A stretch of 32,955 nucleotides of DNA from a bacterium. Lineage in GTDB: Bacteria; Patescibacteriota; CPR2; UBA1875; JAJYID01. This document shows, in pieces, positions 13,691 to 32,955 of this stretch (within the stretch, counting starts at the first letter, position 1; each line of letters opens with the position of its first letter). The notes under the pieces are model-generated. The model worked only from the letters and a program-made list of their open reading frames with translations. It was not told the DNA's origin and made no database searches. Made by a program: the position numbers and the translations under genes. The stretch is from contig JAJYFH010000001.1 of the NCBI GenBank assembly GCA_021791015.1, positions 1-32,955 on the forward strand, given 5' to 3'.

Positions 13691-13713
13691 TTTATTAATT
13701 TAGGAGAAAAATT

Positions 13714-14934: not shown

Positions 14935-14939
14935 TTATT

Positions 14940-15800: not shown

Positions 15801-15803
15801 AGC

Positions 15804-16379: not shown

Positions 16380-16384
16380 TAAAT

Positions 16385-16473
16385 TTGGACACAGCAAAAT
16401 ATGCGGAAAATTTTCATTTAGGGGCAACTCTGACAGTTTTCCGCAAGGATGCTGTGTCCAACAGAGTTGTCCC
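16385..16473 (+). promoter_or_regulatory. nested inverted repeats with pseudoknot-like third pairing upstream of the recombinase gene
   Basis: TTGGACACAGCA (16385-16396) pairs with TGCTGTGTCCAA (16450-16461). Inside that, GCGGAAAA (16403-16410) pairs with TTTTCCGC (16437-16444). The loop segment GGGGCAACTCTG (16421-16432) is complementary, with one mismatch, to CAGAGTTGTCCC (16462-16473). Confidence 0.5.
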
Positions 16474-16502
16474 TCTTTGATTAAGAAAAGGAAAAATGAA
16501 AA

Positions 16503-18152: not shown

Positions 18153-18754
18153 TAAAAGCCCCATTTATCCAAATCTTTTGAAAAACCAACTATCACCTCT
18201 ATCGTTTCAGATATAAATTCTGAGGCAAGTCCATAGGCGGTGAGTCTCAGATGACCCTCTAATACTATCAGGTCTTCATTGTCTCCTTTGCTTACTAAAA
18301 TAAGTTCTGGAAACTTAGCGCCTTTTTTTATTTTCTCGGCTACTTCTAAAAACCTATCATTGCTCTCACCGAATATTTCCTCTCCTGACTGAATAGTCTT
18401 GACTGCATCTTCTACCCGTCTTGAGCCCTTTGATATCTCAAGCCAATAACTATAACTAATATACTTTATGTTTTTTATGTCTTCTTTGGTTAGCTCTGCT
18501 CTTACCCATTTGACATCCTTTGGAAAACCATCAAATAAAAGCTTGTTATTATAACCTCGGGCATCGGCAAGAATTTGCTTTCTTAGTTTATTCTCTTCCT
18601 TATCTTTAAGGTCATAGTTATCAACTATATTCCTGTCAATCTTATATGACTTCAAAGCATTTATAATGGGTTTATCAAACCTCTCAGAATTTAATTCTCC
18701 TTTAAGGAAAATAGCTATCATTTCATTTTCAGTTATATTTTTGATTATCTTCAT
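18149..18754 (-). CDS. hypothetical protein (ORFan, low GC)
   Basis: ORF 18149-18832 overlaps tRNA-His, so ATG 18754 (MKIIKNITENEM) is the likely start. An extended -10 TGCTATAAT sits 6 nt upstream of it with no SD. Contains a C-terminal LIVLEGHLRLTAYG motif. Its stop overlaps the convergent recombinase stop by 4 nt. Confidence 0.6.
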   Translation of the reverse strand: MKIIKNITENEMIAIFLKGELNSERFDKPIINALKSYKIDRNIVDNYDLKDKEENKLRKQILADARGYNNKLLFDGFPKDVKWVRAELTKEDIKNIKYISYSYWLEISKGSRRVEDAVKTIQSGEEIFGESNDRFLEVAEKIKKGAKFPELILVSKGDNEDLIVLEGHLRLTAYGLASEFISETIEVIVGFSKDLDKWGFY

Positions 18755-18776
18755 AAAAAAATTATAGCACATAAAA

Positions 18777-18802
18777 AGAGCCTCAAATGAGGTCTCTTTT
18801 AT
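18777..18802 (-). terminator. rho-independent terminator downstream of tRNA-His
   Basis: The minus strand reads AAAAGAGACCTCA-TT-TGAGGCTCT followed by TTTTT, with one bulged base in the stem. Confidence 0.55.
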
Positions 18803-18820
18803 TTTATAATGTTCTTTTCT

Positions 18821-18896
18821 TGGGGCGATCATCGGGAATTGAACCCGAATCTAGAGGACCACAACCTCTCGTGTTAACCGTTACACTATGACCGCC
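18821..18896 (-). tRNA. tRNA-His (anticodon GTG), CCA encoded
   Basis: Manual fold: G-1 paired to C73, acceptor GCGGTCA/TGATCGC, D stem GTGT/ACAC, anticodon stem AGAGG/CCTCT with loop TTGTGGT, T arm TCGGG-TTCAATT-CCCGA, 3' CCA. Confidence 0.9.
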
Positions 18897-18903
18897 ATAA
18901 AAA

Positions 18904-19380
18904 TTAATTCAATTGTAGCTCATGCTGATGTACTAAATAATGACAGTTACAACACAACCAAGTCAGATTTTCTATTTCATTATTACTTCTCTTTTTATCT
19001 TTATGATGTACTATTAATACCCTCTTATCATCTATGCCACATATTTGACACTTTCTGTTCTGATTTGATCTTTTTAATCTACTTCTATATGTAGCTTGTC
19101 CATTATTCCAATTACCATGATTCTCCGATAATCTTACATTTCTGTTCATCCAAATACAGGTACAGCTTTTTGAGCAAAAAAATTTACCCAATTTTGATTT
19201 TCTGATTTGTGCTGGTGTTCGTAAAATTACTTTGCCACAATTATTACACTCTTTGCGTATTCTCTTTACTTGTCCCTTTGAACGGCATTCAATAGAACAA
19301 TGTCTACTCCAACCGATTTTTAAATGTCTCGGTTTTGCATAAAATTCCTTCTCACAAACTATGCATTTTACATATGGCAT
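18904..19380 (-). CDS. HNH endonuclease (free-standing, Cys-rich zinc-finger N-terminal region)
   Basis: C-terminal HHKDKKRSNNEIENLTWLCCNCHYLVH is an HNH motif. Several CxxC pairs lie upstream. ~30% G+C in a sampled line. The gene is wedged between tRNA-Arg and tRNA-His, 7 nt from the tRNA-His 5' end. Confidence 0.8.
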   Translation of the reverse strand: MPYVKCIVCEKEFYAKPRHLKIGWSRHCSIECRSKGQVKRIRKECNNCGKVILRTPAQIRKSKLGKFFCSKSCTCIWMNRNVRLSENHGNWNNGQATYRSRLKRSNQNRKCQICGIDDKRVLIVHHKDKKRSNNEIENLTWLCCNCHYLVHQHELQLN

Positions 19381-19425
19381 ATCTTAATTTTAATCCTGCC
19401 ATATTCATTTTCAAGTATACAGATT

Positions 19426-19503
19426 TGGTGCGCCCTGAGGGACTCGAACCCCCGACCTTCTGGGCCGAAACCAGACGCTCTAATCCAACTGAGCTAAGGG
19501 CGC
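19426..19503 (-). tRNA. tRNA-Arg (anticodon TCG), CCA encoded
   Basis: Manual fold: acceptor GCGCCCT/AGGGCGC, D stem GCTC/GAGC, anticodon stem TCTGG/CCAGA with loop TTTCGGC, T arm GGGGG-TTCGAGT-CCCTC, discriminator A, CCA. Confidence 0.9.
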
Positions 19504-19552
19504 GTATTTAATTACTAATTTATAATGCGAAATTAATAATTTTTCGAATTTT

Positions 19553-19579
19553 GAGTTGATAATTACTAATTATCAACTC
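19553..19579 (-). other. perfect 12-bp stem / 3-nt loop hairpin abutting the tRNA-Gly 3' end
   Basis: GAGTTGATAATT-ACT-AATTATCAACTC lies immediately downstream of the tRNA-Gly CCA on the transcribed strand. It is AT-rich, so it may be a processing or termination element. Confidence 0.45.
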
Positions 19580-19654
19580 TGGAGCGGGTAGCGGGGATCG
19601 AACCCGCATATCCACCTTGGAAGGGTGGCATAATAGCCATTATACTATACCCGC
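19580..19654 (-). tRNA. tRNA-Gly (anticodon TCC), CCA encoded
   Basis: Manual fold: acceptor GCGGGTA/TACCCGC, anticodon stem CCACC/GGTGG with loop CTTCCAA, T arm GCGGG-TTCGATC-CCCGC, discriminator T, CCA. The D stem is weak (one mismatch). Confidence 0.85.
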
Positions 19655-19840: not shown

Positions 19841-21148
19841 TTACCTCTTTAATAATTTCCGAGCTAACTCTATTGCTTCTTTTTTTGTCTTAATCTTCTC
19901 CTCCATTTGCGCGTGGTGAACGGCATCAAGGATTTTGCCGATTTCCGGACCTTGGCTAATGCCAAACTCATCCATAATCTCTTTTCCGGTCAAAAGTGTC
20001 TCAGGCTTTGGCAAAAGCAGCTCTTTTTTGTCTACTAATTCCTTAAGTTCGTTGTACATACTCAAATCTTTCGGTTTGGTGCCGAGGGTATCGGCGCGAA
20101 GCAGCTCCAAAAGCTCGTGAAACAAAGGTTGGTGAATCCAATGGGATTGTCTGGTTTTTTTCATTTTAAAGAGATCGCCAAGCATCATGTGATGTTTGAT
20201 CAGCCACTGCAAATTTGAGATCATTTCGTTTGAAAACTTTAATCTTTTGCCAATTTCACCTGCCATCTCCGCGCCTTTTTCGGCATGACCGTTGAATCTG
20301 ATGCGGCTGTCAACCGAGAATGTCGCCGGTTTGCCAATGTCATGGAGCAGAACCGCCCAAGCGAGTTCTTTTGACGGATTTTCCGGTAATGAGTCGATGG
20401 ATTCCAGAGTATGTTCGAAAACGTCTCCCTCTTTATGATAAAGTTCCGGCTGTTTAACGCCCTTTAGTTCTTCCAATTCCGGTAAAATAATCTCGAGAAT
20501 TCCGGTTTCTGACATTTCTCGAAATGCCTGACCTGGATTTTTGCCGATTAAAATCTTGGTTAGCTCTTCATGGATCCTTTCGGCCGAGACATTACGAATT
20601 AGCTTGGTATTATTTTTAATCGCTTCAAAGGTTCCGGAAGCGTAACTTAGCTCCAGCTCGTTTTTAAAGCGAATAGCGCGAAGCAGCCGCAGATTATCCT
20701 CGACAATTCGCTCGTGCGGATCACCAATGAAACGCAAAACTTTATTTTTTAAATCATCTTGCCCGCCGACAAAGTCCAGCACTTGTTTCGAAACTGGATC
20801 GTAAAACATGCCGTTAATGGTGAAATCACGCCGGAAAGCGTCCTCTTTCGGATCTGAGAAATAGACAGCATCCGGCCGCCGGCCATCAGTATAGGCAGCG
20901 TCGCTTCGGAAGGTTGCTATTTCAAAATGATGGTCGTTTTTGACCGCCAAAATGACACCAAATTTCTTGCCTATCGGGATAGTATGTTCGAGAATGTCCT
21001 CGATTTCTTCCGGTTTGGCAGAGGTTACGATGTCATAATCCTTGGGGATTTTACCAAGCAAGATATCACGCACCGAACCGCCGGCAAAATAAGTTTCAAA
21101 TCCCTTGGCTTTTAAATCCTTGACGATTTCCAGCGCCGTATTTTCCAT
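19841..21148 (-). CDS. cca: CCA-adding enzyme / tRNA nucleotidyltransferase with HD domain
   Basis: Pol-beta head motif GGSVRDILLGKIPKDYDI, RRDFTINGM, and an HD-domain LLHDIGKP. 435 aa. An extended -10 TGATATAAT sits 6 nt before the ATG. Confidence 0.9.
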   Translation of the reverse strand: MENTALEIVKDLKAKGFETYFAGGSVRDILLGKIPKDYDIVTSAKPEEIEDILEHTIPIGKKFGVILAVKNDHHFEIATFRSDAAYTDGRRPDAVYFSDPKEDAFRRDFTINGMFYDPVSKQVLDFVGGQDDLKNKVLRFIGDPHERIVEDNLRLLRAIRFKNELELSYASGTFEAIKNNTKLIRNVSAERIHEELTKILIGKNPGQAFREMSETGILEIILPELEELKGVKQPELYHKEGDVFEHTLESIDSLPENPSKELAWAVLLHDIGKPATFSVDSRIRFNGHAEKGAEMAGEIGKRLKFSNEMISNLQWLIKHHMMLGDLFKMKKTRQSHWIHQPLFHELLELLRADTLGTKPKDLSMYNELKELVDKKELLLPKPETLLTGKEIMDEFGISQGPEIGKILDAVHHAQMEEKIKTKKEAIELARKLLKR

Positions 21149-21171
21149 AAACTGATTATATCAGGAAAATC

Positions 21172-21196
21172 GATGCTTCGCTTCACTCAGGATCAC
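21172..21196. repeat. degenerate hairpin-repeat unit overlapping the DUF763 stop codon
   Basis: The reverse complement GTGATCCTGAGTGAAGCGAAGCATC is related to the unit at 8492-8517. Confidence 0.45.
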
Positions 21197-22386
21197 AAAG
21201 AAAGCCTTTTATATATTTTTTCCTTTTCTAAAGGATTAATTTTGGTTTTCTTGACCGCCTCCTGCAGAGTATTTATCGTTTTATCGTAAGTCTCCTTGTC
21301 TACCGGATACGGCGTGGCGTCTTTGCCGCCATGGGCAAAGCTGTAGCGAGCCGGATCTTCATATGAAGCATCAGCACCATAAATAATTTCCGAAACGAGT
21401 GACAGAGCCCGAATAGTCTTCGGACCCACACCTTTGGTCGCCACCAGTTCTTCATAGGTTTTCGGCTTCTCATTGGTTAGTTTACCTAGAATTCTTTCCA
21501 GATACTTGCTTTTGGAAAAATCCTCGGCCATAACGGGATGGGTTTTGAACTCTTTTCGAGCAAGTGAAATTAAGGTGGTCTTGTCACCATCAACGCTGTC
21601 ATTCCCGCGGAGGCGGGAATCCAGTCCCTTTTCCCTAAAACTAATCATTTTCGACAAATCGGATGAGTGGCGCCGTAAGATTTCAATGTCCTTCATCACT
21701 GTTTTGAAGTTCGAGTTAACTAGTTCAGTTGAGATTTGTCTGTTTTTGTCCGACCTTTTTGACGACATATTCAGAGTGTTATTTAGTGTACTGATTCTCT
21801 GCGAAGCGATACCTTTGTGCGGCTCCACTATTAAATCTTTGATGTCATCAGAAAACCAGTGATATCGGCGGGCTGTCTGATCCTCGGTGTTCATACCTTG
21901 CTGGACCACCGCCCACGCGCCATTTCGGCTGAATATAAAGCTGTGGTGATAGATTTGATAACCGTCTTGAATTAAGGAGCTGTCGACTTTGGCGCTCATC
22001 TTGGAGTTGTAGACTAAGTTTTCCGTCTTTTCGCCGGGCAAAGATAATCTTTGCCCCCAATCCGTGATTTCATCCGGAGTTTTACGTGAAGTTTTACCCT
22101 TCCCGCCACAAATAAAGACACCTAAATCTCTTTCTTGCCCGCGAATTGATTCCTTAAGCGCCGCTGTTAATATGGTGGTCAACCCGCTCGCATTCCAGTC
22201 AAAGGCAAGAACCGTACCGAGCGATTGGAACCAGACCGGATCGGCTAGGCGCTTCACAAACTCGTCCGGTCCATACTCGGCAATCAACACTCTAGTCATT
22301 TCGCGACCAAGTGAAACCATCCGCCGGAAAAGCCACGGCGGACATTTGCCCCAATCAAGCGTAAATGTAGCGACACCTCTTTGCAT
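21193..22386 (-). CDS. DUF763 domain-containing protein
   Basis: The N-terminus TFTLDWGKCPPWLFRRMVSLGREMTRVLIAEYGPDEFVKRLADPVWFQSLG matches my recollection of the DUF763 family. 397 aa. It contains a 27-nt repeat-derived in-frame segment. Confidence 0.7.
   Translation of the reverse strand: MQRGVATFTLDWGKCPPWLFRRMVSLGREMTRVLIAEYGPDEFVKRLADPVWFQSLGTVLAFDWNASGLTTILTAALKESIRGQERDLGVFICGGKGKTSRKTPDEITDWGQRLSLPGEKTENLVYNSKMSAKVDSSLIQDGYQIYHHSFIFSRNGAWAVVQQGMNTEDQTARRYHWFSDDIKDLIVEPHKGIASQRISTLNNTLNMSSKRSDKNRQISTELVNSNFKTVMKDIEILRRHSSDLSKMISFREKGLDSRLRGNDSVDGDKTTLISLARKEFKTHPVMAEDFSKSKYLERILGKLTNEKPKTYEELVATKGVGPKTIRALSLVSEIIYGADASYEDPARYSFAHGGKDATPYPVDKETYDKTINTLQEAVKKTKINPLEKEKIYKRLSL
21598..21624. 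repeat. GTCATTC hairpin unit inserted in frame within the DUF763 CDS
   Basis: GTCATTCCCGCGGAGGCGGGAATCCAG has the stem ATTCCCGC/GCGGGAAT. Its 27 nt are exactly 9 codons and are translated as LDSRLRGND. Confidence 0.8.
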
Positions 22387-22429
22387 ACTTATATTTTACC
22401 ATTCTTCGCAAGGTCAACTAGTATACAAA

Positions 22430-22876
22430 CTATTTATTTTTTCGGGCGAGTTCCTCGAGAATTTTACTCTGCTTTAACAATTCTTGGTTCTGAGCTTCCA
22501 GAGTTTTTAGAATATATTCTATGTCCTTGTAACTTGTAGTTGTTGTCTTATATTCTTCCTCAGATCTTATTTCGGCATGACGCCCTTGTATATTCTGACC
22601 GACCATTATGAGCGGCATTAAAAGAAGTTGGACAATATTTCCTAGAAAAAGAAGAAATGCAAATGGGTAAGGATCAAAAGGTTTATGGTTGAAAAATCCT
22701 TGCCAAAGCATCCAACTCGCCATAAAAAGAGCAAAGAAATAGACGGCGTACATGGTACCAATGCCAGTGGTGATAATGAGAGCAATCCTGTCCTGAAAGC
22801 CAAGCTGGTTTTTGTGCTTAACATTTACATCTTCCGGTTGATGACGATCAAACTTTGGTTTTTCTGATAAATTCAT
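22430..22876 (-). CDS. DUF1003 domain-containing membrane protein
   Basis: FQDRIALIITTGIGTMYAVYFF...FDPYPFAFLLFLGNIVQLLLMPLIMVGQNIQGRHAEIRSEEEY is the characteristic DUF1003 core. ATGA overlap with the upstream gene. Confidence 0.75.
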   Translation of the reverse strand: MNLSEKPKFDRHQPEDVNVKHKNQLGFQDRIALIITTGIGTMYAVYFFALFMASWMLWQGFFNHKPFDPYPFAFLLFLGNIVQLLLMPLIMVGQNIQGRHAEIRSEEEYKTTTTSYKDIEYILKTLEAQNQELLKQSKILEELARKNK

Positions 22877-23124
22877 TGTTTTTTTCCTATAAATTTAAAT
22901 CTTACTATCCGTTTGCCGTCCTCAAATTCTTTTTCTCCCAAAAACATATCGATTGGCCGCAGCCAAATCATATTTTCCCCATATTGCGCCTGATAAATCA
23001 CTGTTTCTTCTAGTGTTTCGGTGTGAATCCCGACTCCCAAAACTTCATATTTCTTACCTTGCCAGTTTTCGTAGAAACCAAGCCTAATATCCTTGGCTTT
23101 TTGTGATAATTCAACTTTCTCCAT
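22873..23124 (-). CDS. DUF1653 domain-containing protein
   Basis: 83 aa. GFYENWQGKKYEVLGVGIHTETLEETVIYQAQYGENMIWLRPIDMF matches the DUF1653 pattern. Its start overlaps the stop of the fused ABC gene (TAATG). Confidence 0.75.
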   Translation of the reverse strand: MEKVELSQKAKDIRLGFYENWQGKKYEVLGVGIHTETLEETVIYQAQYGENMIWLRPIDMFLGEKEFEDGKRIVRFKFIGKKQ

Positions 23125-25127
23125 TACTCATACCTCAGTGCATTTAGTGCACTAATTTTAGAAGCGCGCCTTGCCGGGTAAATACCCGTAATAATGCTCA
23201 AAAAAACAGAGAAAGCCAATACAGCGAAAAGAAACAGAGGAGGGAAAACAAAAATTTGAATTGGGCTGTTTCCTGTTGTCTTTGCCAAAGTATAAATGCT
23301 AAGGTTAAAAAATTCACCCAAGATATAACTCAAGACCACACCCGTCATGCCTCCGATAAGACCGATAAAAAGAGTGTCAAGAATAAACATTCTTTTAATA
23401 TCTCTGCGGGTCGTGCCCATGGTTTTTAATAAACCGATCTCACGAGTCTTCTCAACCAAAGAAATGGTCAAGGTGTTGAACATGCCGATACAGGATACGA
23501 CGATAGCTACCGCGCCAAAAGCTATGAGAATAACCCGGAAAATACCAAAAAATTGATTGGCCTGGTCAATCGTATCTTTGATAGAACTGACTTGAAATCC
23601 CATATGTTCAATCAAAGATTTAATACTATCAAGGTTGTTAACGGTAGTAATTTTAACTTCCGCACCGCTAAAATTCACAATTCCCATCTTTTCAAGGCTG
23701 GCAAGGGGCATATAGATATAAGGCGCATCACCTTCACTGGTTATGCCAACTATCTTAAACTGGCCGTTTTTTGACTGAAAGTTTTCCCCTGCTTTTTCCA
23801 AAAGTTCAGGACGAATAATAGCCTGTACTTTAAGGTTCTGGTTCAGCACATCGTTATCTTGATTTATGCCAAGCGCTTTCAAAGCTGCTGTGTTCACCAG
23901 AACTTCCTGGCTTTTGCCGGAAAAATAGTTGCCTGCTGTTAAGCTTGGCCTTTCGATTTCATTTAACGTTTCGCCACTTCTGCCATAGATTGCCCCGGTA
24001 ATTTTTTTGCCATGGAAACTAAAATCACCGGCTAAACTGAGTAAAGGATAAACCTTTTCCACCCCAAAAATATTAGACATTTTGTCCAGGGTCGGCTGGT
24101 CAATGCTGGTTTTCTCTGAACCTCCAACATCGACATTTAAAATCTGCAGGGCGGACATTTTCTGAACTCCTTCTGTTGTCAGCTTTTGGAAACCATAGCT
24201 AAGAGCAATTAGAAAAGAAATAAAACCGATACTTAAAGCCACACCACCAGAAGTCAGCAACGTTCTGGCCTTGTATTTTTTAAAATTTTTGAATGCAAGG
24301 TCTGCTAAGAACAGCCACTTTGTCCAGAAAGAACTTGTTCTGCCGCTTTTTCTCAACGCTTGGGGCCGCAAAACATTTTCCCTAACCCGAACTTGTTTAA
24401 CTACCCCATCCTCCATTTGAACAAACTTGCTGGCGTATCTTTCATAATCAGGATTATGGGTAACCATAATAGCTGTTTTACCGGTTTCCACATTTAGTGT
24501 CCGGAGGTCATACATAAGATCCTCAGCAGTCACTGAATCCAAGCTGCCCGTCGGCTCGTCAGCCATAATAATAAGGGGGTCGGGAACCAAGGCCCTGCCA
24601 ACAGCAAGCTTTTGTTGCTCCCCGCCGGAAAGTTCAGCCGGATTTTTTCTTGCAAATTGTTCGAATCTAAAAAGATAAAGCATATTTCGAGCCGCATCCA
24701 GCGCTTTGTTTCTTTTCAATCCAGCTATCCTTAAAGGCAATGATATGTTTTCTAACACATTGAGGGACTTTACCCAATTTGACTCTTGGTAAACCACCCC
24801 AAAGTTTGCACTGCGAAAAGCAGCTCTTTCGTCTTCATTCATGCCATACACGTCCGTTCCGGCAACTAGAACTTGCCCTTCATCCGGCCTCTCAAGACCA
24901 AGTATCGTATTTAAAAGCGTTGTTTTGCCGCAACCGGAAGGACCAATAATAATTACAAACTCGCCGGGATAAATTTCTAAATTTACGCCCTTTAAAATAT
25001 CATTTTTTCTATCACCCGAGAAAAAACTTTTTTTTACTCCTTTAATTTTAAGTAAAGGGGAAATTTCCCGGCTGTTCATATTGTCTGTCATTGATTCCTT
25101 TGAGATCAAGCCAAGATTTTTGCTCAT
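23124..25127 (-). CDS. fused MacB-type ABC transporter (N-terminal ATPase + C-terminal FtsX-family permease)
   Basis: Walker A GPSGCGKTTLLN, signature LSGGEQQK and Walker B IIMADEPTGSLD. These are followed by TM1, a ~220-aa external domain and three C-terminal TMs ending YPARRASKISALNALRYE. ATG 25127 overlaps the upstream TGA (ATGA) and follows a GGAGGAG SD. Confidence 0.9.
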   Translation of the reverse strand: MSKNLGLISKESMTDNMNSREISPLLKIKGVKKSFFSGDRKNDILKGVNLEIYPGEFVIIIGPSGCGKTTLLNTILGLERPDEGQVLVAGTDVYGMNEDERAAFRSANFGVVYQESNWVKSLNVLENISLPLRIAGLKRNKALDAARNMLYLFRFEQFARKNPAELSGGEQQKLAVGRALVPDPLIIMADEPTGSLDSVTAEDLMYDLRTLNVETGKTAIMVTHNPDYERYASKFVQMEDGVVKQVRVRENVLRPQALRKSGRTSSFWTKWLFLADLAFKNFKKYKARTLLTSGGVALSIGFISFLIALSYGFQKLTTEGVQKMSALQILNVDVGGSEKTSIDQPTLDKMSNIFGVEKVYPLLSLAGDFSFHGKKITGAIYGRSGETLNEIERPSLTAGNYFSGKSQEVLVNTAALKALGINQDNDVLNQNLKVQAIIRPELLEKAGENFQSKNGQFKIVGITSEGDAPYIYMPLASLEKMGIVNFSGAEVKITTVNNLDSIKSLIEHMGFQVSSIKDTIDQANQFFGIFRVILIAFGAVAIVVSCIGMFNTLTISLVEKTREIGLLKTMGTTRRDIKRMFILDTLFIGLIGGMTGVVLSYILGEFFNLSIYTLAKTTGNSPIQIFVFPPLFLFAVLAFSVFLSIITGIYPARRASKISALNALRYE

Positions 25128-28100
25128 TTGACTCCTCCGCCAAAAAGCCATCCTATGCTTGAAAATACCGATTTTAAAATTAAATCCAGCACTGAAGGCC
25201 GCGCCTGCCCGGTCAGAGCTGAACGTACTTCTGATTTTGCTTCATTTTGCGATGCATCTTTGGTAATAATCCTAAAATAGTAAGGAGTCGATGGTTTCAA
25301 ATGGGAAATAATGACAGCATGCGAGGTAACAAGCGACGTATCTTCCTGGGTTGCCAGATTTAAATCTTGGCCATTTCCGCCTTCTTCATATTCAACTTGA
25401 GAAGTGGCAGGTTCATCGGTAGTCCAAGAAACGATAAGCTGCGATTCAGTACTTACTCCATATCCTTCAGATGAATTTTCCGTTGTGATTTGCGAGATTG
25501 CCGGCGGCCTTGTGTCGGCTACGGTAGTAACGTCCTGGCTAACCGGACGGGCTTCGTTACCAAGCCCGTCTCTGCCCCTAACCACCACACTATAACTAGT
25601 TTTGTCTTTTAAACCCGAGAGTATCATCTCATGTTGGGTAATTAACTGGTAATCGGAAGCGGTTTGCACGGCACCTGTTGCATCCTGGTATTGTATCTGG
25701 GAAGAAGCAGGAACATTGGTGTCCCAGGAAACTTTTAAACCAGAAGATGGCTGATCTGTTACTTGTTCGAATGCAAGATTTGAAATTTTAGGAAAAGCAA
25801 GCGTTTCAAAAGAATAATCGTCAGACTGGACGAAATTACCGCTCGAGTCAGTCCCGCTTATTCTTAAATGATAAGTGCTTGAGTCTTGAAGGGCTGTCAG
25901 CTGGACGGAATGATTCATCCCTGATCCTCCGTCAGTAGAGAAACCATAATCCGTAGTTTTGCCATAATTTACGATAGAAGCCATGTCTTGCGTAGTCTGC
26001 CAGGACACAAGGGCACTATCAGCATGGATATCGCTGATTTTTAAGTTTGAAATTTCCGCTGACAGAGGGGTAGTAAAAACATAATCACCTGCATAATAGT
26101 CTTGATCGCTGTATGTTCTTTCCTGATCGAGAGATTGGATTTTATAGTGATAAGAGGCGCCAGGAATCAGACCCTTCAAAGAAACAGAGTGGTATGTAAC
26201 CGCATCCTGAGAACCTGCAATTGACCCATAACTGGTATCCGTTCCGTAATCAACCGCAGATGAAGATACTCTGTCGGTTGACCATGTTATGTTTGCGGTA
26301 GTAGCCGATGTTGTCACTGAAGGAGGAGTTACTAAAGAAGGCATGCTCGTATATTTGCCGGTCGGCGTAATCGAAACAACATTAGAAGGATCAGAGACAT
26401 TATTATAGAGACCGCCGATCGTGTCATGTTCAACCGCTTCCACCCTGTAAGAATAATTTACATTTGAACTGCCGACTATTTCTGCATAAGCTTGCTGTGT
26501 ACCATCACTGGTTACACCAACCTGATGCCACGGTCCTCCGTTGTCTGAACGTTCTATTTGATAAAAGCCTACCTGGGTTCCGCCGGCTTGCGGAGCATCC
26601 CATGTTAAAGCTGCCGCCCAGACTCCCTTTGCCCTATTCGACACATCTGAGACCTCAAGCGATTGAGGAGGATTTGGAGGATTTCCTTTAATAGAAACTT
26701 GGATATTGGCAAGTTTCTGGCTGTCACTTGCAGAAGACCCGTGAAAAATCGCTTTCCATTTAAATTTACCCGTACCGCTGCCATAATTTCCCGTAAATGA
26801 AGAGATATTTTGATTAATGACAGAAGCAGTATTTAAATATGTATTGTCGGCTGCAACCGTCCAAGCCGTTCCGTCATACCAATACCAAGTAGCTCCGTCA
26901 TCATTTGACACTTGATAATAAATTGTGCCAATGGAACCAGTACCCAGGTTTTCCTTAAAACCCATGAGCGTACTATAGTTTTGGCTTACATTTGGAATGA
27001 TTGTCGATGTAGGGTAATAATATATGTTCACCCAGTCCGAACCAGCATTCACTGTTTTTAAATTATTTTGATACCCCCCCGTATAACAGACGTTGGCGCT
27101 TGGACAGCTGATTATAAATAAATTGTGTGTTATAGGTACGCTTTGAGCGACCCATGTAGTGCCTCCATTCGTGGTCTTTAGGATAGTACCGAATTGTCCC
27201 ACAGCAAAACCGGTATTGTTGTTTATAAATTTAATATCATTAAGCCAATAAGCTGCTCCGGATGTTTGCGTGTTCCAGTTTGTTCCGCCATTTGTAGTTT
27301 GTAAAATCGTACCGGCATTCCCATCAGTATAACAAGTATTGGCATCCGTACAAGCAATACCATAAAGAGCGTTGCTTGTCCCTGATGCTTGGGTATTCCA
27401 AGTATTGCCGCCGTCGGTGGTTTTAAGTATTGTGCCAGCGTCTCCAACTACGTAACCAACATTGCTGTTGCCGGGAAAGTCAATTTCAACCATAAACGAT
27501 ATTGTGTTAAAATTTTGAGCAGTCCAGCTGGCGCCTCCATTCGTCGTTTGGAAAATAGCGCCTTTGTATGAGTTATTCTCTCCCGACGCAAAACAGACAT
27601 TAGCATCCCTGCAATACATAGAGTATATGAATCCGCTCACCGCACTAGTAGGATTCCAAGTATTACCGCCATCAGTGGTTTTAAGTATAATATTATTGCC
27701 GCCCGCATAAGCGATACTGTTATTTAAAAAATAAATACTATATAAAGCTGTTCCTGAATATTGCTGGGTCCAGTGGGCGCCTCCATCTGCGGTTTTATAA
27801 ATCTTACCAGTGCCAGAACTATCATAACCATCGATATAGCAAGTACTTGTATCAGTACAGTGAATACCAATTATATTAGCAAGTAAGGAATTATAGTTCC
27901 CTGCAGGATATGCAATCCCTCCGCTGATAGTTATCTCACTGGGATTATAAGTATAGTTTGCCGCATTATTTAAATCCCATTCATAACTGGTGGAAGCTAA
28001 CGTTCTTTGGGGAGCCATGAAAGAAAACACACTCAAAGAACTAAAGATAATACTTATAACATAAAAAGTTAGAATAGCCGCGTGAAAATGGCGGCTCAAA

Positions 28101-28258
28101 CGCCGGCTGTGCCATTTCCGGTACCAGGCCAGTTTATGAAGATACATGTGCAAAGAAAAGGTTGTATGAAACCTAAGTAAATTTAAAACCCGCAAGTTGC
28201 TAGGATTGCTCAGTTTTTGTTTATTCTCGCGCTTACGCCTGCTGATTTTAAACATCAT
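25124..28258 (-). CDS. giant cell-surface protein: N-terminal TM anchor, 7-bladed BNR/Ycf48-like beta-propeller, Fn3 and purple-acid-phosphatase-N-like Fn3 repeats, conserved C-terminal tail
   Basis: 1044 aa. TM helix AAILTFYVISIIFSSLSVFSFMA. Seven Asp-box-like motifs (TADGGAHW, TTDGGNTW x2, TTNGGASW, TTNGGTNW, TTNGGTTW, TVNAGSDW). Repeated units of the type ITWSTDRVSSSAVDYGTDTSYG...YHYKIQSLD. Tail LDLILKSVFSSIGWLFGGGVK. Confidence 0.85.
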   Translation of the reverse strand: MMFKISRRKRENKQKLSNPSNLRVLNLLRFHTTFSLHMYLHKLAWYRKWHSRRLSRHFHAAILTFYVISIIFSSLSVFSFMAPQRTLASTSYEWDLNNAANYTYNPSEITISGGIAYPAGNYNSLLANIIGIHCTDTSTCYIDGYDSSGTGKIYKTADGGAHWTQQYSGTALYSIYFLNNSIAYAGGNNIILKTTDGGNTWNPTSAVSGFIYSMYCRDANVCFASGENNSYKGAIFQTTNGGASWTAQNFNTISFMVEIDFPGNSNVGYVVGDAGTILKTTDGGNTWNTQASGTSNALYGIACTDANTCYTDGNAGTILQTTNGGTNWNTQTSGAAYWLNDIKFINNNTGFAVGQFGTILKTTNGGTTWVAQSVPITHNLFIISCPSANVCYTGGYQNNLKTVNAGSDWVNIYYYPTSTIIPNVSQNYSTLMGFKENLGTGSIGTIYYQVSNDDGATWYWYDGTAWTVAADNTYLNTASVINQNISSFTGNYGSGTGKFKWKAIFHGSSASDSQKLANIQVSIKGNPPNPPQSLEVSDVSNRAKGVWAAALTWDAPQAGGTQVGFYQIERSDNGGPWHQVGVTSDGTQQAYAEIVGSSNVNYSYRVEAVEHDTIGGLYNNVSDPSNVVSITPTGKYTSMPSLVTPPSVTTSATTANITWSTDRVSSSAVDYGTDTSYGSIAGSQDAVTYHSVSLKGLIPGASYHYKIQSLDQERTYSDQDYYAGDYVFTTPLSAEISNLKISDIHADSALVSWQTTQDMASIVNYGKTTDYGFSTDGGSGMNHSVQLTALQDSSTYHLRISGTDSSGNFVQSDDYSFETLAFPKISNLAFEQVTDQPSSGLKVSWDTNVPASSQIQYQDATGAVQTASDYQLITQHEMILSGLKDKTSYSVVVRGRDGLGNEARPVSQDVTTVADTRPPAISQITTENSSEGYGVSTESQLIVSWTTDEPATSQVEYEEGGNGQDLNLATQEDTSLVTSHAVIISHLKPSTPYYFRIITKDASQNEAKSEVRSALTGQARPSVLDLILKSVFSSIGWLFGGGVK

Positions 28259-28263
28259 AAAAA

Positions 28264-28272
28264 ATTATATCA
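28264..28272 (-). promoter_or_regulatory. extended -10 element (TGATATAAT) 5 nt upstream of the giant-protein ATG
   Basis: The minus strand reads TGATATAAT-TTTTT-ATGATG with no SD. Confidence 0.45.
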
Positions 28273-28326
28273 CAATCATTATTTTTCCAACATTAACCAA
28301 TAAAAGAAGAGTTCTAATTTCTTTTG

Positions 28327-29526
28327 CTATTCGTATCTAAGGGCATTTAAGGCGCTGATTCTGGATGCGCGCCTCGAAGGATAGGCGCCGGTTAGGAAAC
28401 TGATTAAGATTGAAAGTAAAAGGGCAACAATAATCAGCATTGGCGGAAAAACGAAGATCTGGACCGGATTATTCCCACTAGATTTAGCCAGAGCGTAAAC
28501 ACTGGCATTTAGTGCTTCTCCCAATAAATAGCTTGCTATAAGACCGGTAATACCGCCTACCATTCCGATAAGCAGCGCTTCTGAGATGAAAATTCGGCGT
28601 ACGTCCTTTTTGGTAGTTCCCAAAGATTTCATAATACCTATTTCCCTAGTCTTTTCGATTAATGAAATAGTTAAAGTGTTAAACATGCCGATACAAGAAA
28701 CTGCTACGGCAATGAATCCAAAACCCATTAAGACAGCCCTAAAGACACTGAAAAACTGATTAACTTGGTCTACCGTATCTTTAACCGTGCTAACCTTAAA
28801 ACCCATATGCTCAATCAAGACCTTTATTTTGTCTACGTTATCTTTGCTAGTTGCTTTCACCTGAGCCGAACTGAAATTTTGGACCCCCAGATCTTTTAAA
28901 TTATCAAGTGGTACATAGACATAAGGCGAGTTACCCTCATTAAGAATTCCCACCACCCGGTAGGTAGCTTGTACTGTCTTTGCAGGCTGTCCGTTATTTA
29001 ATAAGAGTTCTGGACGAAGCACCATTGATAGATCTAACTCTCTGCCAACTAAGCCTTGAGGATTGGCAGCTCCCAACTTTTTCGCTGCCGATGTATTAAC
29101 AATAACTTCCTTGGATTTATCAGAGGAATATTTCTTGCCAAATGAAATTTTGGGGTTCTCTATACTTAGAGCGTCAGTACTTTTGCCATAAACTATCCCA
29201 TCAACTTTTGAACCCTGCAAGCTTAGGCTGCCTGCAACACTTATCATCGGATAAACTTTCTCAACCCCTAAAATATTTGAAAACTTACTTAGACTATCGT
29301 TATTTATACTAACAATTTTTGAATTTCCGGCATCTATAGTTAACATCTGAAGAGCTTGCATATTTGCAATTTGATTAGTGGAAATTTGCTGCAGGCCATA
29401 TCCCAAAGCTGTCAAAAAAGAAATAAAACCTATACTGATAGCCACTCCGCCAGCCGTCAAAAAGGTTCTCAGCTTATAGCGTGTCAGGTTCCTCAACGAT
29501 AACTTGATAATAAACCCAAGCTTCAT
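28327..29526 (-). CDS. MacB/FtsX-family ABC transporter permease
   Basis: Paralog of the C-terminal half of 23124-25127, with shared runs GMFNTLTISL, EKTREIG, IFVFPP and SALNALRYE. ATG 29526 overlaps the ATPase TGA (TGATG) and follows a GAGGAGG SD; the track start at 29529 is TTG. Confidence 0.9.
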   Translation of the reverse strand: MKLGFIIKLSLRNLTRYKLRTFLTAGGVAISIGFISFLTALGYGLQQISTNQIANMQALQMLTIDAGNSKIVSINNDSLSKFSNILGVEKVYPMISVAGSLSLQGSKVDGIVYGKSTDALSIENPKISFGKKYSSDKSKEVIVNTSAAKKLGAANPQGLVGRELDLSMVLRPELLLNNGQPAKTVQATYRVVGILNEGNSPYVYVPLDNLKDLGVQNFSSAQVKATSKDNVDKIKVLIEHMGFKVSTVKDTVDQVNQFFSVFRAVLMGFGFIAVAVSCIGMFNTLTISLIEKTREIGIMKSLGTTKKDVRRIFISEALLIGMVGGITGLIASYLLGEALNASVYALAKSSGNNPVQIFVFPPMLIIVALLLSILISFLTGAYPSRRASRISALNALRYE

Positions 29527-30281
29527 CAAAAGACCTCCTCGGTAAGATCCACTACATCCTCTTGCTTTACCTCCATGGGTTTCTCTCTCTGCATGATCCT
29601 TTTTATTTTTCCATCTTCCATATAAACTAGCTTAGTAGCATATCGCTCATATGCCGGATTATGTGTTACCATCACAATTGTCCTTTTCGATTCAGAGTTT
29701 AAAACTTTGAGATCATACATCAAATCTTCTGCCGTTACTGTATCTAGATTGCCGGTCGGCTCATCGGCCATGATAATCCAAGGGTTTGAAACCAGAGCGC
29801 GGCACATAGAAAGCTTTTGCTGCTGGCCGCCGGAAAGTTCCATTGGGTAATATTTGGCATAATTGTCAAACTTGAAAAGATACAAAATATTTCTGGCCCT
29901 TTTCATTGCCTCACCATGGCTTACACCTGCAATATTTAACGGGAAGGCAACGTTCTCTATGACATTCAAGGAGCGAACCCAGTTTGGCTGCTGATAGACA
30001 ACACCGAACTTTTGCCTCCTGAAAGTCGCCCTGCCGTCCTCATCCATTGTGTAGATATCCTTGCCACGCACTAAAACCTGACCTTCAGTAGGCTGCTCAA
30101 GCCCAAGGATCGTGTTCAATAGAGTGCTTTTGCCGCAACCCGAGGGACCAAGAATCACCACAAACTCACCGAAGCCCACTTTCAGATTTAATTCCTTTAG
30201 CACGGGAATTGCTTCTTTGCCAACCAGAAAACTCTTTTTGAGATTTTTTACCTCCAGTGTCGGTGTATTTAATTTTGCCAT
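29526..30281 (-). CDS. MacB/LolD-type ABC transporter ATP-binding protein
   Basis: Walker A GPSGCGKSTLLN, signature LSGGQQQK, Walker B IIMADEPTGNLD, H-loop MVTHNP. Paralog of the N-terminal half of 23124-25127. Confidence 0.9.
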   Translation of the reverse strand: MAKLNTPTLEVKNLKKSFLVGKEAIPVLKELNLKVGFGEFVVILGPSGCGKSTLLNTILGLEQPTEGQVLVRGKDIYTMDEDGRATFRRQKFGVVYQQPNWVRSLNVIENVAFPLNIAGVSHGEAMKRARNILYLFKFDNYAKYYPMELSGGQQQKLSMCRALVSNPWIIMADEPTGNLDTVTAEDLMYDLKVLNSESKRTIVMVTHNPAYERYATKLVYMEDGKIKRIMQREKPMEVKQEDVVDLTEEVF

Positions 30282-30383
30282 TATCTTACCCTCGCTTCTA
30301 TTTGATTTGAAATCTATCTTAACATTTATTGTATGGAAATTGACTAGAAATTTGGAATCAGGTTAGAAATTTTATATACTTGT

Positions 30384-32955
30384 CTAGCCTCCAAAAAGCC
30401 AACCCAAAGTTGATTCAAACGACTTCAGAACAAGATCGAAAATTGATGACTGAGCCTGCTCGGTTAAAGCAGAATTTTCATCAGATTTAGCTTCATTTTT
30501 GGAAGCATCCTTGGAGACAACTCTGAAATAATATGAACTTGACGGATCAAGATCAGAGATGACCACCACATGAGAAGTGGCAAGTGAATCATCCTCTTTG
30601 GTTGACATACCGTAAGTGTCACCGGATACTCCTTTGGCATACTCAACCTGGGAAGTAGCCGGTTCGTCAGTATTCCAAGAAACAATGATTTGGGACTTAG
30701 CTTCGGTCCCGAAACCACTGATAGAGGTTTCGGTGGTAATGCCGGAGATAACAGGAGGGGTGGTATCAAATGCAGTTTTGTATGCCTGGCTGTTAGGTAC
30801 CGCTTCATTGCCGTAAGCATCTCTGCCGGTAACAGAAATTGTATAGTTGGAGTTATCGGCCAGATGGGGCGTGATAATCTCATGCTGCAAGACTAAATCT
30901 GCCTTTGAAACCTCCTGAGAACCGCCCGGACCATTGTAAACAACCGTGGAAGTTGTGGGAACATTGGAATCCCAAGTTACTTTCAGCCCGGCATTGTTAC
31001 CACTTAGCTCCTCGTACTTAATGTTTGAAATCTTCGGAAAAGTTAAGGTGTCAAAGCTATAATCATCCGATTGCATAACATTGCCGTCTGTGTCGGTGCC
31101 GTAGATTTTGAAATGATAGGTTGAGGAATCCTGAAGATTTGGAATTCTAACTGTATGAGTGGTCACAGCCGAACCGGAAGAATCAGTAAGTTCGCTGCCA
31201 TAGGAGCTGGTCTTGCCATATTTGATAGTTGAAATCGACGAGGAAGTAGTTTTCCAGCTGACAATAGCACTCGAAAGGGTGATATCTGAAATTTTTACAT
31301 CACTAATTCCCGGGGCCGGCTGAGTTGAGAAAGTTTGGTCGCCCGAATACGCTAAGCTATCGTCATAATCCTTGAGGTCGGAAGGATCAAGAGATTGGAC
31401 ACGATAATGATAGACTGTACCAGGATCCAAACCATAGAGAGTGACAGAATGCGAGGTAGCAGTTTGAAGCGAACTGTTTTGGAGACCGTAGCTTGAATCT
31501 TTGCCGTATTCTACCATAGAATAAGAGCTTCTATCTGTTGACCATGTAATAGTCGCTGATGTAGCCGTGGCTGTGGCGCCCGGACCGCTAACCATGGTAG
31601 GCGGAGTAATATATTTACCGGTCGGCGTCAGAGAGGCCACGCTTGAAAGAGGCGATTCAGCTCCGGCATTGTCAACGGCAGAAACTCTGTAATAGTAAGT
31701 GGTGCCTTTGGTGAGGTCTGCCTCCGCATAAGCCGGCGTTGATGCCGTACCGACCGGAGCCAGAGCCTGCCACTGGGCATCAGTCAGGTTGGATGCAGTT
31801 GTTTCTCGAATGATGTAATGGCCGAAAGTATTTGCGTCATAGTTATCCGGTGCCTTCCAAGCCAGAGCCAAGCCAAACTCGGGCTTTCGAAGGTCAGAAA
31901 CATCCGAGATGGTTACGGTCTGAGGGGCATGTGGAGCGGTGGCTGTGGTATTTACTTCAAATTGAATCAAACTGTAGTTAGAATAGTTCACCCTAGCCGG
32001 ATTGGAACTATCATAAGCTACCACATAGAAAGTATTGACCCCCTGCTTGGTGGCGGCATGGATAACCCCGGTAGTATTGCCGGTCGGCTGGCTACCGGTG
32101 ACCTGGGTGACTGAACCGGGAAGAGGAAGGGTATTTACGGAGTAGTAGTATCCGGCAATGGGAGAGTTGGTTACGCCGTTCACAGGCGGAGCATCCCAGG
32201 TGAAAGTAAAGTTGTTTTCCGTCTTTGACTGGGCATCCACCTGAAGATTAGGCGGAGCGCCGGGAGCGTTGGTGGTGTAGTAGTAGTTAATTGTTTTGGG
32301 AGCGGAGACATTGCCCGCTTTATCCACCGCTTCGACGCTGAAGGTATTTTGGCCTTCCTGACCCACGATGCCGGTTGCCGGAGAAGACGCGATTGTCGTC
32401 CATGTGTCACCGGCGTATTTTTGGTAAATGTAGTGGTCGATACCGGAGTCGGCGTCGGTTGCCCCCGACCAGTTGACGGTAACCGGATTGGCTGAGTACT
32501 CCAGGGTATTTACGCTGATGGATAAGGGGGCGGTGGGAGCAACGTTGTCATATTTGTAAGTTAGAAGGGTAACAGGCGCCGCCACGTTGCCGGCATTATC
32601 CACCGCAGAGATGCGCAGATAATATGTCTGGCCATCTGTGAGTCCTGAGGCTACGAGATAATTGTTGGTGGTAGCATCGGAAGATGTCGGGGTATAGTTC
32701 GGGTCCGTGGTTAGCTTGGCGTAATATTCCCAGACACCGGAAGCGTCGGGGTTGCCGGTATCGGCCGGTGCGGTCCAGGCAAACTTCGGCGCCGCGTAGT
32801 TATGCCAGAGCTGGGTGGGATCATATGCCCAGGTAGCGCTGGGAGTGGAAGTATAGATTTGGCCGCCGGAAACTGCTGCCGCCAGTTTGGTGCCGTCGGC
32901 GGAAGAGGCGATTGCATACCAACTTTGACTTGTAGCTCTAGGTGTCCAGGTGACG
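30384..32955 (-). CDS. giant cell-surface protein, paralog of 25124-28258, N-terminus outside window
   Basis: I checked codon by codon that the frame stays open from the track's GTG at 32603 to the window edge. The upstream part reads ...WYAIASSADGTKLAAAVSGGQIYTS.... Contains Fn3 repeats with AVDNAGN/AVDKAGN motifs, the same ITWSTDR...YHYRVQSLD units, and the tail FDLVLKSFESTLGWLFGG. Confidence 0.85.
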   Translation of the reverse strand, partial: VTWTPRATSQSWYAIASSADGTKLAAAVSGGQIYTSTPSATWAYDPTQLWHNYAAPKFAWTAPADTGNPDASGVWEYYAKLTTDPNYTPTSSDATTNNYLVASGLTDGQTYYLRISAVDNAGNVAAPVTLLTYKYDNVAPTAPLSISVNTLEYSANPVTVNWSGATDADSGIDHYIYQKYAGDTWTTIASSPATGIVGQEGQNTFSVEAVDKAGNVSAPKTINYYYTTNAPGAPPNLQVDAQSKTENNFTFTWDAPPVNGVTNSPIAGYYYSVNTLPLPGSVTQVTGSQPTGNTTGVIHAATKQGVNTFYVVAYDSSNPARVNYSNYSLIQFEVNTTATAPHAPQTVTISDVSDLRKPEFGLALAWKAPDNYDANTFGHYIIRETTASNLTDAQWQALAPVGTASTPAYAEADLTKGTTYYYRVSAVDNAGAESPLSSVASLTPTGKYITPPTMVSGPGATATATSATITWSTDRSSYSMVEYGKDSSYGLQNSSLQTATSHSVTLYGLDPGTVYHYRVQSLDPSDLKDYDDSLAYSGDQTFSTQPAPGISDVKISDITLSSAIVSWKTTSSSISTIKYGKTSSYGSELTDSSGSAVTTHTVRIPNLQDSSTYHFKIYGTDTDGNVMQSDDYSFDTLTFPKISNIKYEELSGNNAGLKVTWDSNVPTTSTVVYNGPGGSQEVSKADLVLQHEIITPHLADNSNYTISVTGRDAYGNEAVPNSQAYKTAFDTTPPVISGITTETSISGFGTEAKSQIIVSWNTDEPATSQVEYAKGVSGDTYGMSTKEDDSLATSHVVVISDLDPSSSYYFRVVSKDASKNEAKSDENSALTEQAQSSIFDLVLKSFESTLGWLFGG

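Follow-up and report, generated by a model that had tools for sequence, protein, structure and literature searches.

The 32,955-nt stretch of DNA analysed here (hereafter the window; contig JAJYFH010000001.1 of assembly GCA_021791015.1, from a member of the Patescibacteriota) carries on its minus strand two neighbouring copies of a gene set in which a giant protein with a predicted secretion leader is followed by a MacB-like ATP-binding cassette (ABC) transporter. The whole is most probably a type VII ABC machine that has the C-terminal module of the giant protein as its outside partner, whether for anchoring and actuation or for an extraction resembling that of the Lol system. The more specific reading that we favour, with somewhat less than even confidence, is that of a three-part envelope cassette of the Patescibacteria, in which one or more giant proteins are accompanied by a type VII ABC transporter as a dedicated partner that would anchor and actuate them in the manner of FtsEX. 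Anchoring or activation is what the gene linkage and the anatomy of the proteins suggest. The two copies consist of the following features.

30384 to beyond 32955, minus strand: giant protein 2, of which 856 C-terminal amino acids and the stop codon are visible.
30387..30449, minus strand: C-terminal amphipathic tail helix of giant protein 2, SSIFDLVLKSFESTLGWLFGG, followed by the stop codon (from the tail alignment and its column frequencies).
29526..30281, minus strand: ABC ATPase of the split transporter, 251 aa (ABC_tran, E 3.5e-32).
28327..29526, minus strand: MacB/FtsX-type permease of the split transporter, 399 aa from the ATG (MacB_PCD, E 8e-19; FtsX, E 4e-24).
Roughly 28732-29394, minus strand: extracytoplasmic domain (ECD) of this four-helix permease, between membrane helices 1 and 2.
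25124..28258, minus strand: giant protein 1, 1044 aa (Pfam PSII_BNR, fn3 and Pur_ac_phosph_N).
27995..28258, minus strand: N-terminal leader of giant protein 1, residues 1-88 (from hydrophobicity and a motif scan).
27023..27877, minus strand: variable head of giant protein 1, a BNR/Ycf48-like beta-propeller, residues ~128-412 (PF14870, E 3e-24).
25217..26341, minus strand: Fn3/Pur_ac_phosph_N-like stalk of giant protein 1, residues ~640-1014 (from Pfam, BLASTP against giant protein 2 and the AlphaFold2 model).
25145..25192, minus strand: C-terminal amphipathic tail helix of giant protein 1, SVLDLILKSVFSSIGW, followed by LFGGGVK and the stop codon.
23124..25127, minus strand: fused ATPase-permease of canonical MacB architecture, 667 aa (Pfam ABC_tran, MacB_PCD and FtsX).
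~24378-25052, minus strand: nucleotide-binding domain (NBD) of the fused protein.
~23583-24155, minus strand: ECD of the fused protein, which also has a linker and four membrane helices.

The proposal rests partly on the constancy with which giant and transporter genes stand together in other genomes. A cassette was provisionally defined as a giant with a terminal Fn3 domain and tail helix whose gene stands directly in front of, and on the same strand as, the genes for an ATPase and a MacB_PCD/FtsX permease; both window copies fit this definition, and related loci supply 115 unique cassettes that fit it too. A permease alignment (A1) was scanned against one genome per GTDB species, which gave 78 loci at 33-74% identity, and a hidden Markov model (HMM) of the tail was run on all stop-to-stop open reading frames (ORFs) of the loci. 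A tail-bearing giant lies directly upstream, on the same strand, of 71 of the 74 transporter copies that have enough upstream DNA, and the spacing from the end of the giant to the ATPase is 0 to about 100 bp. A tail alignment (A2) was likewise scanned against metagenome contigs and recovered 79 loci with 83 tail ORFs, 7 of which were not evaluable. Here the ATPase is found directly downstream of the giant in 64 of 76 evaluable cases, the remaining giants being followed by another tail protein (5), by a large ORF cut by the contig end (3) or by neither (4). A few contigs present in more than one fetch are contained in these counts. The order giant, ATPase, permease recurs in the contexts of close and distant homologues alike, and on a Saccharibacteria contig the truncated ORF in front of the ATPase ends in the same Fn3 domain and tail.

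According to the depositors' labels, the metagenome-assembled genomes of the permease scan belong to Saccharibacteria/Saccharimonadia, Berkelbacteria, Howlettbacteria, WS2 and “Patescibacteria group”, and the pairing is also seen under the label WS5. For three loci labelled Gammaproteobacteria or Coxiellaceae (L033, L035, L069), the Pfam families of the flanks showed no diderm-specific genes; L035 and the patescibacterial locus L007 have a GalT-like neighbour in common. An earlier note on this DNA had put forward the pairing of giant and MacB-type genes as a point on which its proposal could fail, and the pairing held in both surveys, down to the most distant permeases. The same note called the pairing strictly one-to-one, which is not so in the relatives, where a transporter is accompanied by one to three giants and some transporters and giants are unpaired. 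Arrays of two or three giants in front of one transporter occur in L002, L003, L044, L061, L067, L143 and L155.

One alternative is linkage without contact between the two proteins: the transporter might move something else that giants require or provoke, for instance a lipid, glycolipid, peptide or antimicrobial, its gene being placed beside the giant only for co-expression. MacB-family pumps of monoderms are often resistance systems for small molecules or peptides, and the closest solved structures include BceAB, the Streptococcus Spr0694-0695 transporter (5xu1) and Bacillus subtilis YtrEF (function unknown). No giant precedes the transporter in three of the loci, and Southlakia epibionticum has a MacB-type pair without a giant. 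An adjacency of 71 in 74 that persists to 33% identity with constant order and strand is nevertheless far tighter than is usual for co-expression, and these genomes otherwise show little conserved synteny. Moreover, the one universal element of the otherwise variable giants is precisely the transporter-proximal C-terminus, and within a single genome the type of tail tracks the transporter paralog. We consider this alternative improbable.

Both copies of the transporter are matched by the Pfam families ABC_tran (PF00005, E 3e-31 and 3.5e-32), MacB_PCD (PF12704) and FtsX (PF02687), and the ATPase motifs are intact in both: GPSGCGK(S/T) as Walker A, LSGG(Q/E)QQK as signature, IIMADEPTG as Walker B, with the catalytic glutamate kept, and VTHN as H-loop (GPSGCGKS, LSGGQQQK, IIMADEPTG and VTHN in the split ATPase). 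The split copy has the layout of LolCDE and FtsEX, the fused copy the canonical layout of MacB, in which an NBD precedes the transmembrane domain (TMD). An AlphaFold2 (AF2) model of the fused protein, built on a 53-sequence alignment with a mean predicted local distance difference test (pLDDT) score of 76, shows an NBD, a low-confidence linker (residues 253-265), a short amphipathic helix and then the membrane part, with membrane helices at 286-322, 516-569, 574-618 and 630-657 and a mixed alpha/beta ECD at residues 325-515. The best Foldseek matches of this model are MacB structures (5gko, 5lil and 5nik; TM-score 0.67-0.73, ~24% identity), followed by LolE, matched over the full permease, and then by the permease YtrF of B. 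subtilis; sequence searches of the PDB agree with the placement near MacB. Conserved ECD residues are visible in permease alignment A1, and homologues of the permease are widespread in Patescibacteria.

With intact ATPase motifs, a four-helix FtsX-domain permease and a large ECD between helices 1 and 2, the window proteins have the features of type VII ABC transporters. None of the NCBIfam equivalog models was reached: MacB (NF007826) scored 240 against a cut-off of 966, LolD 196 against 308, LolCE 79.8 against 362, FtsE 173 against 265 and the FtsX models 43-53 against 225-255. They are therefore type VII ABC transporters outside every characterised subfamily, and they do not join a family of known, unrelated substrate, as they might have done had the proposal been mistaken. 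HlyD/MFP and OEP families, which would supply the partners of a MacAB-TolC system, are absent among the called genes of 8 related loci. Since there is a single permease gene per cassette, the permease probably works as a homodimer. In five metagenome loci the permease ORF is 536-706 aa long instead of the usual ~400 (L137 1210-3069, L146 6021-7847, L154 4507-6624, L158 5246-6853 and L163 4224-6026), which suggests an added domain or a fusion with the downstream gene.

The two transporters of the window are clear paralogs, as the earlier note had proposed from shared motifs. The split ATPase is 62% identical to the NBD of the fused protein (228 aa, E 1e-104) and the split permease 53% identical to its membrane half (399 aa, E 3e-156), values far beyond chance. 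The giants are alike only over the C-terminal 536 aa (48% identity, E 2e-142 by BLASTP); this shared region begins near residue 516 of giant 1, and the N-terminal halves are unrelated.

The conserved C-terminus belongs to a common plan of about 150 relatives, which consists of an N-terminal leader, a variable head, a conserved stalk of Fn3 domains and a C-terminal tail. These proteins typically range from 0.6 to 2.9 thousand amino acids, and up to about 6 thousand; full-length homologues of giant 1 (P0001-P0005) and orthologues of giant 2 of ~1460-1600 aa (L001 2821-7203, L003 3072-7799, L005 4409-9199) are among them. The heads, lectin-like or propeller domains among them, differ from giant to giant: a BNR/Ycf48-like propeller in giant 1, over which AF2 reaches a pLDDT of 80-90, DUF2341 in the orthologues of giant 2, additionally Laminin-G in some loci, and glycine-rich segments elsewhere. 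A description of both window giants as propeller/Fn3 proteins of ~1000 aa thus fits giant 1 (1044 aa, BNR propeller) and fails for giant 2, which is incomplete in the window and whose orthologues carry DUF2341. The stalk is made of ~4-5 Fn3 domains of the Pur_ac_phosph_N type, seen as beta-sandwich repeats in the AF2 model of giant 1. An HMM of the terminal Fn3 domain, which bears the motif SW.TDEP.TSQVEY, finds 4-10 matches per giant.

The tail is a helix of ~17 residues with the consensus S-[VI]-[LF]-x-[IL]-[IV]-[LIF]-[NK]-[ST]-[LF]-x-x-x-[FL]-G-[WFL], with a near-invariant glycine and an aromatic residue, followed by 0-8 residues and the stop codon. It is amphipathic, with a median hydrophobic moment of 0.51 and a mean hydrophobicity of 0.20 over 157 distinct tails, and too polar to span a membrane (Kyte-Doolittle mean over 17 residues of 1.0-1.5). 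In the AF2 model of giant 1 the tail forms a helix at residues 1023-1038, of low pLDDT and unpacked from the last Fn3 domain. A C-terminal signal of the sortase or exosortase type, with motif, membrane helix and basic cluster, is found in none of the tails, which contain D, N, K, Q and S. The NCBIfam CTERM models gave no C-terminal match, and the match of giant 2 to the MXYO-CTERM family sits at residues 82-127. Sorting by a sortase-type system (LPXTG, PEP-CTERM, GlyGly-CTERM) is thus ruled out by an amphipathic tail without a basic cluster. A search of a representative protein library with the 130-aa tail module returned 3786 representatives at E <= 1e-10, mostly multi-Fn3-repeat proteins, so that the Fn3-tail family is large; about one third of the top 150 representatives match best at the extreme C-terminus, in proteins of up to 6321 aa. 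A separate homologue search with this module yielded nothing beyond 20 short fragments.

Tail and transporter also correspond in type. The tail type of giant 2 is shared by all giants that stand in front of a split transporter in this lineage, and in genomes with two cassettes all 8 informative comparisons of paralogs show tails that agree with the orthology of the neighbouring transporter. In arrays, the tails of the extra giants are of the type that belongs to the transporter closing the array. Giant type likewise matches transporter type, BNR-headed giants standing with fused and DUF2341-headed giants with split transporters. This matching is kept in L005 even though the cassettes there are in reverse order with other genes between them.

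At the other end of the protein, the leader consists of ~45 basic, His/Trp-rich residues, a hydrophobic membrane helix of ~20-21 residues and an AxA-like signal-peptidase site. In giant 1 it comprises the motif RFHTTFSLHMYLHKLAWYRKWHSRRLSRHFH, the membrane helix and then TLA|S at residue 88, and the motif takes the general form RFHTT..LH....WY..WH.....H..H. An HMM of the leader built here matches 54 of 96 complete tail-bearing ORFs. Beyond these it matches only 2 ORFs in all loci, both of them 5' fragments of split giants; at least 10 further giants have an ordinary signal peptide, and in the rest no leader was detected. The two split giants consist of a leader-bearing 5' ORF and a tail-bearing 3' ORF (L001 9341-9937/10001-12475; L122 1508-4225/4192-6369) and could result from a frameshift, a stop codon, an assembly error or pseudogene formation. 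Such a split accounts for the 824-aa “WS5” protein P0005, which has no leader of its own. Just past the predicted cleavage site, many giants show a motif W-[DNTS]-F ... [DS]-[YF]-[TS]-[FYL], even across different heads, and giant 1 has a related form of it, STSYEWDLNNAANYTY; the mature N-terminus may therefore hold a third conserved element.

The N-terminal signals bear on what the transporter might do. Export was one of the roles that the earlier note had suggested for it, and because the giants carry N-terminal signals of the Sec type, their passage across the membrane through this transporter is unlikely. A secretion aid of another kind would act at the N-terminal end, either by clearing the cleaved ~90-aa leader from the membrane or by cooperating with it while the giant passes through Sec or afterwards. 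Only giants have this leader, and its cytoplasmic portion, conserved and rich in His and Trp, sits beside a membrane helix, on the same side of the membrane as the transporter NBD and N-terminal helix; moreover, type VII ABC transporters extract membrane-embedded hydrophobic species (PMC12646458). Yet 42 of the 96 complete giants lack such a leader, having an ordinary or no detected signal peptide, and still keep tail and transporter; the universal feature is the tail, not the leader. A role of this kind seems very improbable.

On the reading we favour, the giant would be exported by Sec and its leader cleaved, after which its C-terminal Fn3 domain and helix would dock on the outer face of the transporter, the site being the ECD or else an outer-leaflet groove flanked by the membrane helices, so that the transporter itself would be the membrane anchor. 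The Fn3 stalk would cross the wall and the variable head would be shown outside. ATP binding and hydrolysis might then be relayed across the membrane by mechanotransmission, as in FtsEX-EnvC/PcsB, and drive a change of state in the bound giant, be it holding, tensioning, repositioning or timed release.

The same tail could instead be a handle for extraction. In such a Lol-like scheme the exported giant would be held in the outer leaflet by its tail helix, as an in-plane anchor, until the transporter captures the helix in an outer-leaflet cavity and expels it with ATP. The giant would thereby be set free, its destination being the wall, an S-layer, the medium or a host cell, and the role of the transporter would be that of a catalyst in processing rather than that of a lasting anchor. 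LolCDE and YbbAP do pull hydrophobic moieties from the outer leaflet (PMC8333309, PMC12646458), and LolE is the next-best structural match of the full permease after MacB. The tail is amphipathic with a Gly-aromatic end and resembles in kind the C-terminal membrane anchor of PBP5 (PMC2909392), and the service of one to three giants by one transporter fits catalysis. The conserved part, however, includes ~4-5 Fn3 domains, which make more sense as a stalk that spans the wall from an anchor near the membrane than as a handle for release. No LolA-like acceptor recurs in the loci, and a released giant would have no recognisable way to stay on the cell. Extraction appears rather unlikely to us, and conservation of the whole stalk, beyond a mere handle, together with the lack of any other anchoring signal, favours the transporter as anchor.

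Several points weigh against an anchoring and actuating transporter. The model leaves unexplained why an anchor needs ATP, the tail helix on which docking would depend is modelled by AF2 with low confidence, and up to three giants per transporter are no less expected of a catalyst than of a fixed anchor. Two transporter loci (L028, L038) have no giant nearby, and in a third (L029) the giant is convergent and lies just downstream. Three to four giants are orphans (L089, L096, L098 and perhaps L149), although L149 is probably another cut array, since it belongs to the same protein family as the cut arrays L145 and L162. Distances among tails do correlate, and most strongly with those among ECDs (r 0.78 over 115 unique cassettes, 0.50 when the ATPase is controlled for, and 0.39 for tail and ECD given the TMD as compared with 0.26 for tail and TMD given the ECD), but as a sign of contact these values are only suggestive because the sequences share a phylogeny. 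Finally, in S. epibionticum ML1, the only Patescibacterium with genome-wide transposon-sequencing data, a candidate orthologue pair (SEML1_0053/0054) has a tRNA-Ser gene upstream instead of a giant (PMC10633639 supplement). The pair encodes a MacB_PCD/FtsX permease of 408 aa and an ATPase of 311 aa, and both are growth-defect genes in that data set (PMC10633639 supplement); it may be an orthologue that lost its giant or became unlinked from it. The essential “Fn3” protein SEML1_0890 of the same organism was rejected as an orthologue of the giants, being only 195 aa long and having unrelated neighbours.

Within the window, minus-strand ORFs confirm the gene order giant 2, ATPase, permease, giant 1, fused ATPase-permease, DUF1653, DUF1003, and all four junction strings quoted earlier (TGATG, ATGA, TAATG, ATGA) are found in the sequence. 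The stop codon of the ATPase overlaps the start of the permease (TGATG), and the start of the fused gene overlaps the stop codon of giant 1 (ATGA). The giant 2 gene is cut by the end of the window, as its reading frame is open to the last base. A TTG one codon before the ATG of the permease would make a protein of 400 aa, and the ORF of the fused protein continues upstream without a stop codon as far as 25151, so that translation from there would yield 675 aa. A scan of 21000-32955 for promoters and terminators gave the same counts as shuffled sequence.

The tandem pair is an old duplication of the whole cassette, and the fused form is derived. In a neighbour-joining tree of the permeases, the fused copies (the window, L001, L002, L003, L005 and L013) form one clade, whose sister group consists of the split copies from this lineage, and all outgroups are split; the closest named relative of the fused clade is labelled candidate division WS5. 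From this topology it follows that the whole cassette was duplicated first and that ATPase and permease were then fused in one copy. Where fusion and fission had both seemed possible, the position of the fused clade among split copies decides for fusion. A phylogenetically distant ATPase-permease fusion stands directly after a tail-bearing giant in L164 (746-3139), and fusion therefore arose more than once. Compared with the close relative L003, the downstream cassette is highly similar (94% identity for giant 1, 97% for the fused transporter), and the upstream cassette less so (74% for giant 2, 81% for the ATPase, 74% for the permease). Cassettes thus diverge or are exchanged as units, and giant and transporter also duplicate and move together.

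Two further genes are joined to the fused transporter gene through overlapping start and stop codons.

22873-23124, minus strand: DUF1653 protein (Pfam).
22430-22876, minus strand: DUF1003 protein (Pfam).

Both are missing at this position in the relative with 94% identity (L003), where DUF763 directly follows the transporter; DUF1653 is found in L001 and L002. Their place beside the cassette is synteny at the level of the lineage, and they are ruled out as defining parts of it, as they are not conserved with it and no downstream family recurs in other lineages. More generally, no neighbour family recurs beside the cassette, the commonest being present in 12 of 119 loci downstream and in 9 of 48 upstream. 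In 9 of 48 loci the giants are immediately preceded by a member of a family of ~280-aa, secreted-looking proteins (for example L023 869-1705, with an N-terminal hydrophobic segment), which is thus the most frequent neighbour on the upstream side. The 3.5 kb in front of the giants contain a reverse-transcriptase-like ORF with an FRDRVV motif in 5 of 48 loci (L040 4838-5986) and a small ORF, presumably coding for a four-helix-bundle protein, in 6 of 48 (L040 2376-2735). The latter two may together represent a diversity-generating retroelement.

Elsewhere in the window, positions 11350-19400 have a low GC content (0.32-0.37, compared with 0.40-0.48 in the remainder). This stretch contains genes for a large serine recombinase (16503-18152), a DUF4209 protein and an HNH endonuclease (18904-19380), as well as several ORFs without a Pfam match, and it abuts genes for tRNA-His, tRNA-Arg and tRNA-Gly (18821-19654). 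Since the close relative L009 has no counterpart for ~11343-18750, it looks like an integrated mobile element or prophage remnant. The window also encodes two ABC-2-type transporters, each with an ATPase and one or two permeases (554-2637 and 7636-10370), and a protein that carries two repeats of the Ltp type (“host cell surface-exposed lipoprotein”; 6777-7298).

A large part of bacterial diversity is accounted for by Patescibacteria, whose cultivated members live attached to other microbes. For such organisms the cassette offers three handles on how giant proteins are anchored and controlled, namely the conserved plug at the C-terminus, the specific leader and the dedicated ATPase, and it provides a simple rule by which the proteins in question can be found in any genome: one looks for a tail-bearing giant with a MacB-type pair behind it. 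The window is a clean example of the duplication of a whole cassette followed by fusion of the ATPase and permease genes. It is possible, although doubtful, that the cassette is an unrecognised envelope machine of the whole phylum, in which the motor forms a socket for giant adhesins, the leader directs the giants to it, and ATP loads, tensions, retracts or releases them via the plug of Fn3 domain and helix. If so, these bacteria would possess an energised apparatus for engaging and releasing host cells, with exchangeable heads that set the host range. Large Fn3/DUF2341 proteins of Patescibacteria have been noted only as putative adhesins (PMC11809585, PMC13059738, PMC10633639). Among open-access papers and preprints we found no published description of the tail, the leader or the linkage of giants to an ABC transporter, which bears out the impression, formed from the sequence, that this was not a described system.

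Type VII ABC transporters move no substrate across the membrane but pass ATP-driven movements to the extracytoplasmic side (PMC12646458; PMC5985334; PMC7668044). All four such systems of Escherichia coli have a dedicated outside partner: FtsEX-EnvC, LolCDE-LolA, MacAB-TolC and YbbAP-TesA (PMC12646458). With the cassette, type VII systems would gain a fifth kind of partner and, for the first time, one that is a giant protein of structural or adhesive function. Functionally, its nearest counterparts are the FtsEX-partner systems and extractors of the LolCDE/YbbAP type, and structurally its nearest counterpart is MacB. FtsEX, with its partners EnvC, PcsB, CwlO or RipC, shares with the cassette a split ATPase, a four-helix permease of the FtsX fold, the absence of a transported substrate and operation in monoderms, and its dedicated extracellular partner docks through helices on the ECD. 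The ECD of the cassette, in contrast, is of the larger MacB_PCD (Porter/Sabre) type, and the giants consist of propeller, LamG or DUF2341 heads and Fn3 domains only, without coiled coil, hydrolase or LytM domain. Strict adjacency of the partner gene, as seen in the cassette, is also not generally found for FtsEX partners.

MacB is the best match in both structure and sequence, and the fused copy has its canonical NBD-TMD arrangement with a MacB_PCD domain. Unlike MacAB-TolC, however, the loci with listed genes contain no gene for a MacA-type adaptor or for TolC, and the partner is a giant surface protein in an organism that we take to be a monoderm. A single membrane has been inferred for one genus (PMC11809585). 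A type I secretion system is ruled out by the FtsX-fold permease, by the absence of a membrane fusion protein and an outer-membrane protein, and by the N-terminal signals of the giants.

LolCDE-LolA and YbbAP-TesA are likewise type VII systems that combine a hydrophobic “handle” in the outer leaflet with a dedicated extracytoplasmic partner (PMC8333309, PMC12646458). In the cassette the handle would be a C-terminal amphipathic peptide helix rather than acyl chains or lipids, there is a single permease gene, and a LolA-like or TesA-like protein is lacking. The gene for TesA is presumably a genomic neighbour of ybbAP.

The leader of the giants has its analogues in the extended signal peptides of very large surface proteins, that is, the ESPR of autotransporters and the YSIRK and KxYKxGKxW signals of Gram-positive adhesins. 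These too are conserved N-terminal extensions in front of the hydrophobic core and are confined to very large secreted or surface proteins, whereas the giant leader has a different motif, is lineage-specific and always occurs with the C-terminal tail and the transporter. The tail in turn recalls PBP5 and PBP6, in which a short C-terminal amphipathic helix is the sole element of membrane association of an exported protein (PMC2909392). PBP5, unlike the giants, needs no ABC partner, and the resemblance is one of kind only, with no homology. A type VII ABC transporter with a dedicated partner is therefore familiar from these known systems, and what is new in the cassette is the class of partner and its two conserved signals.

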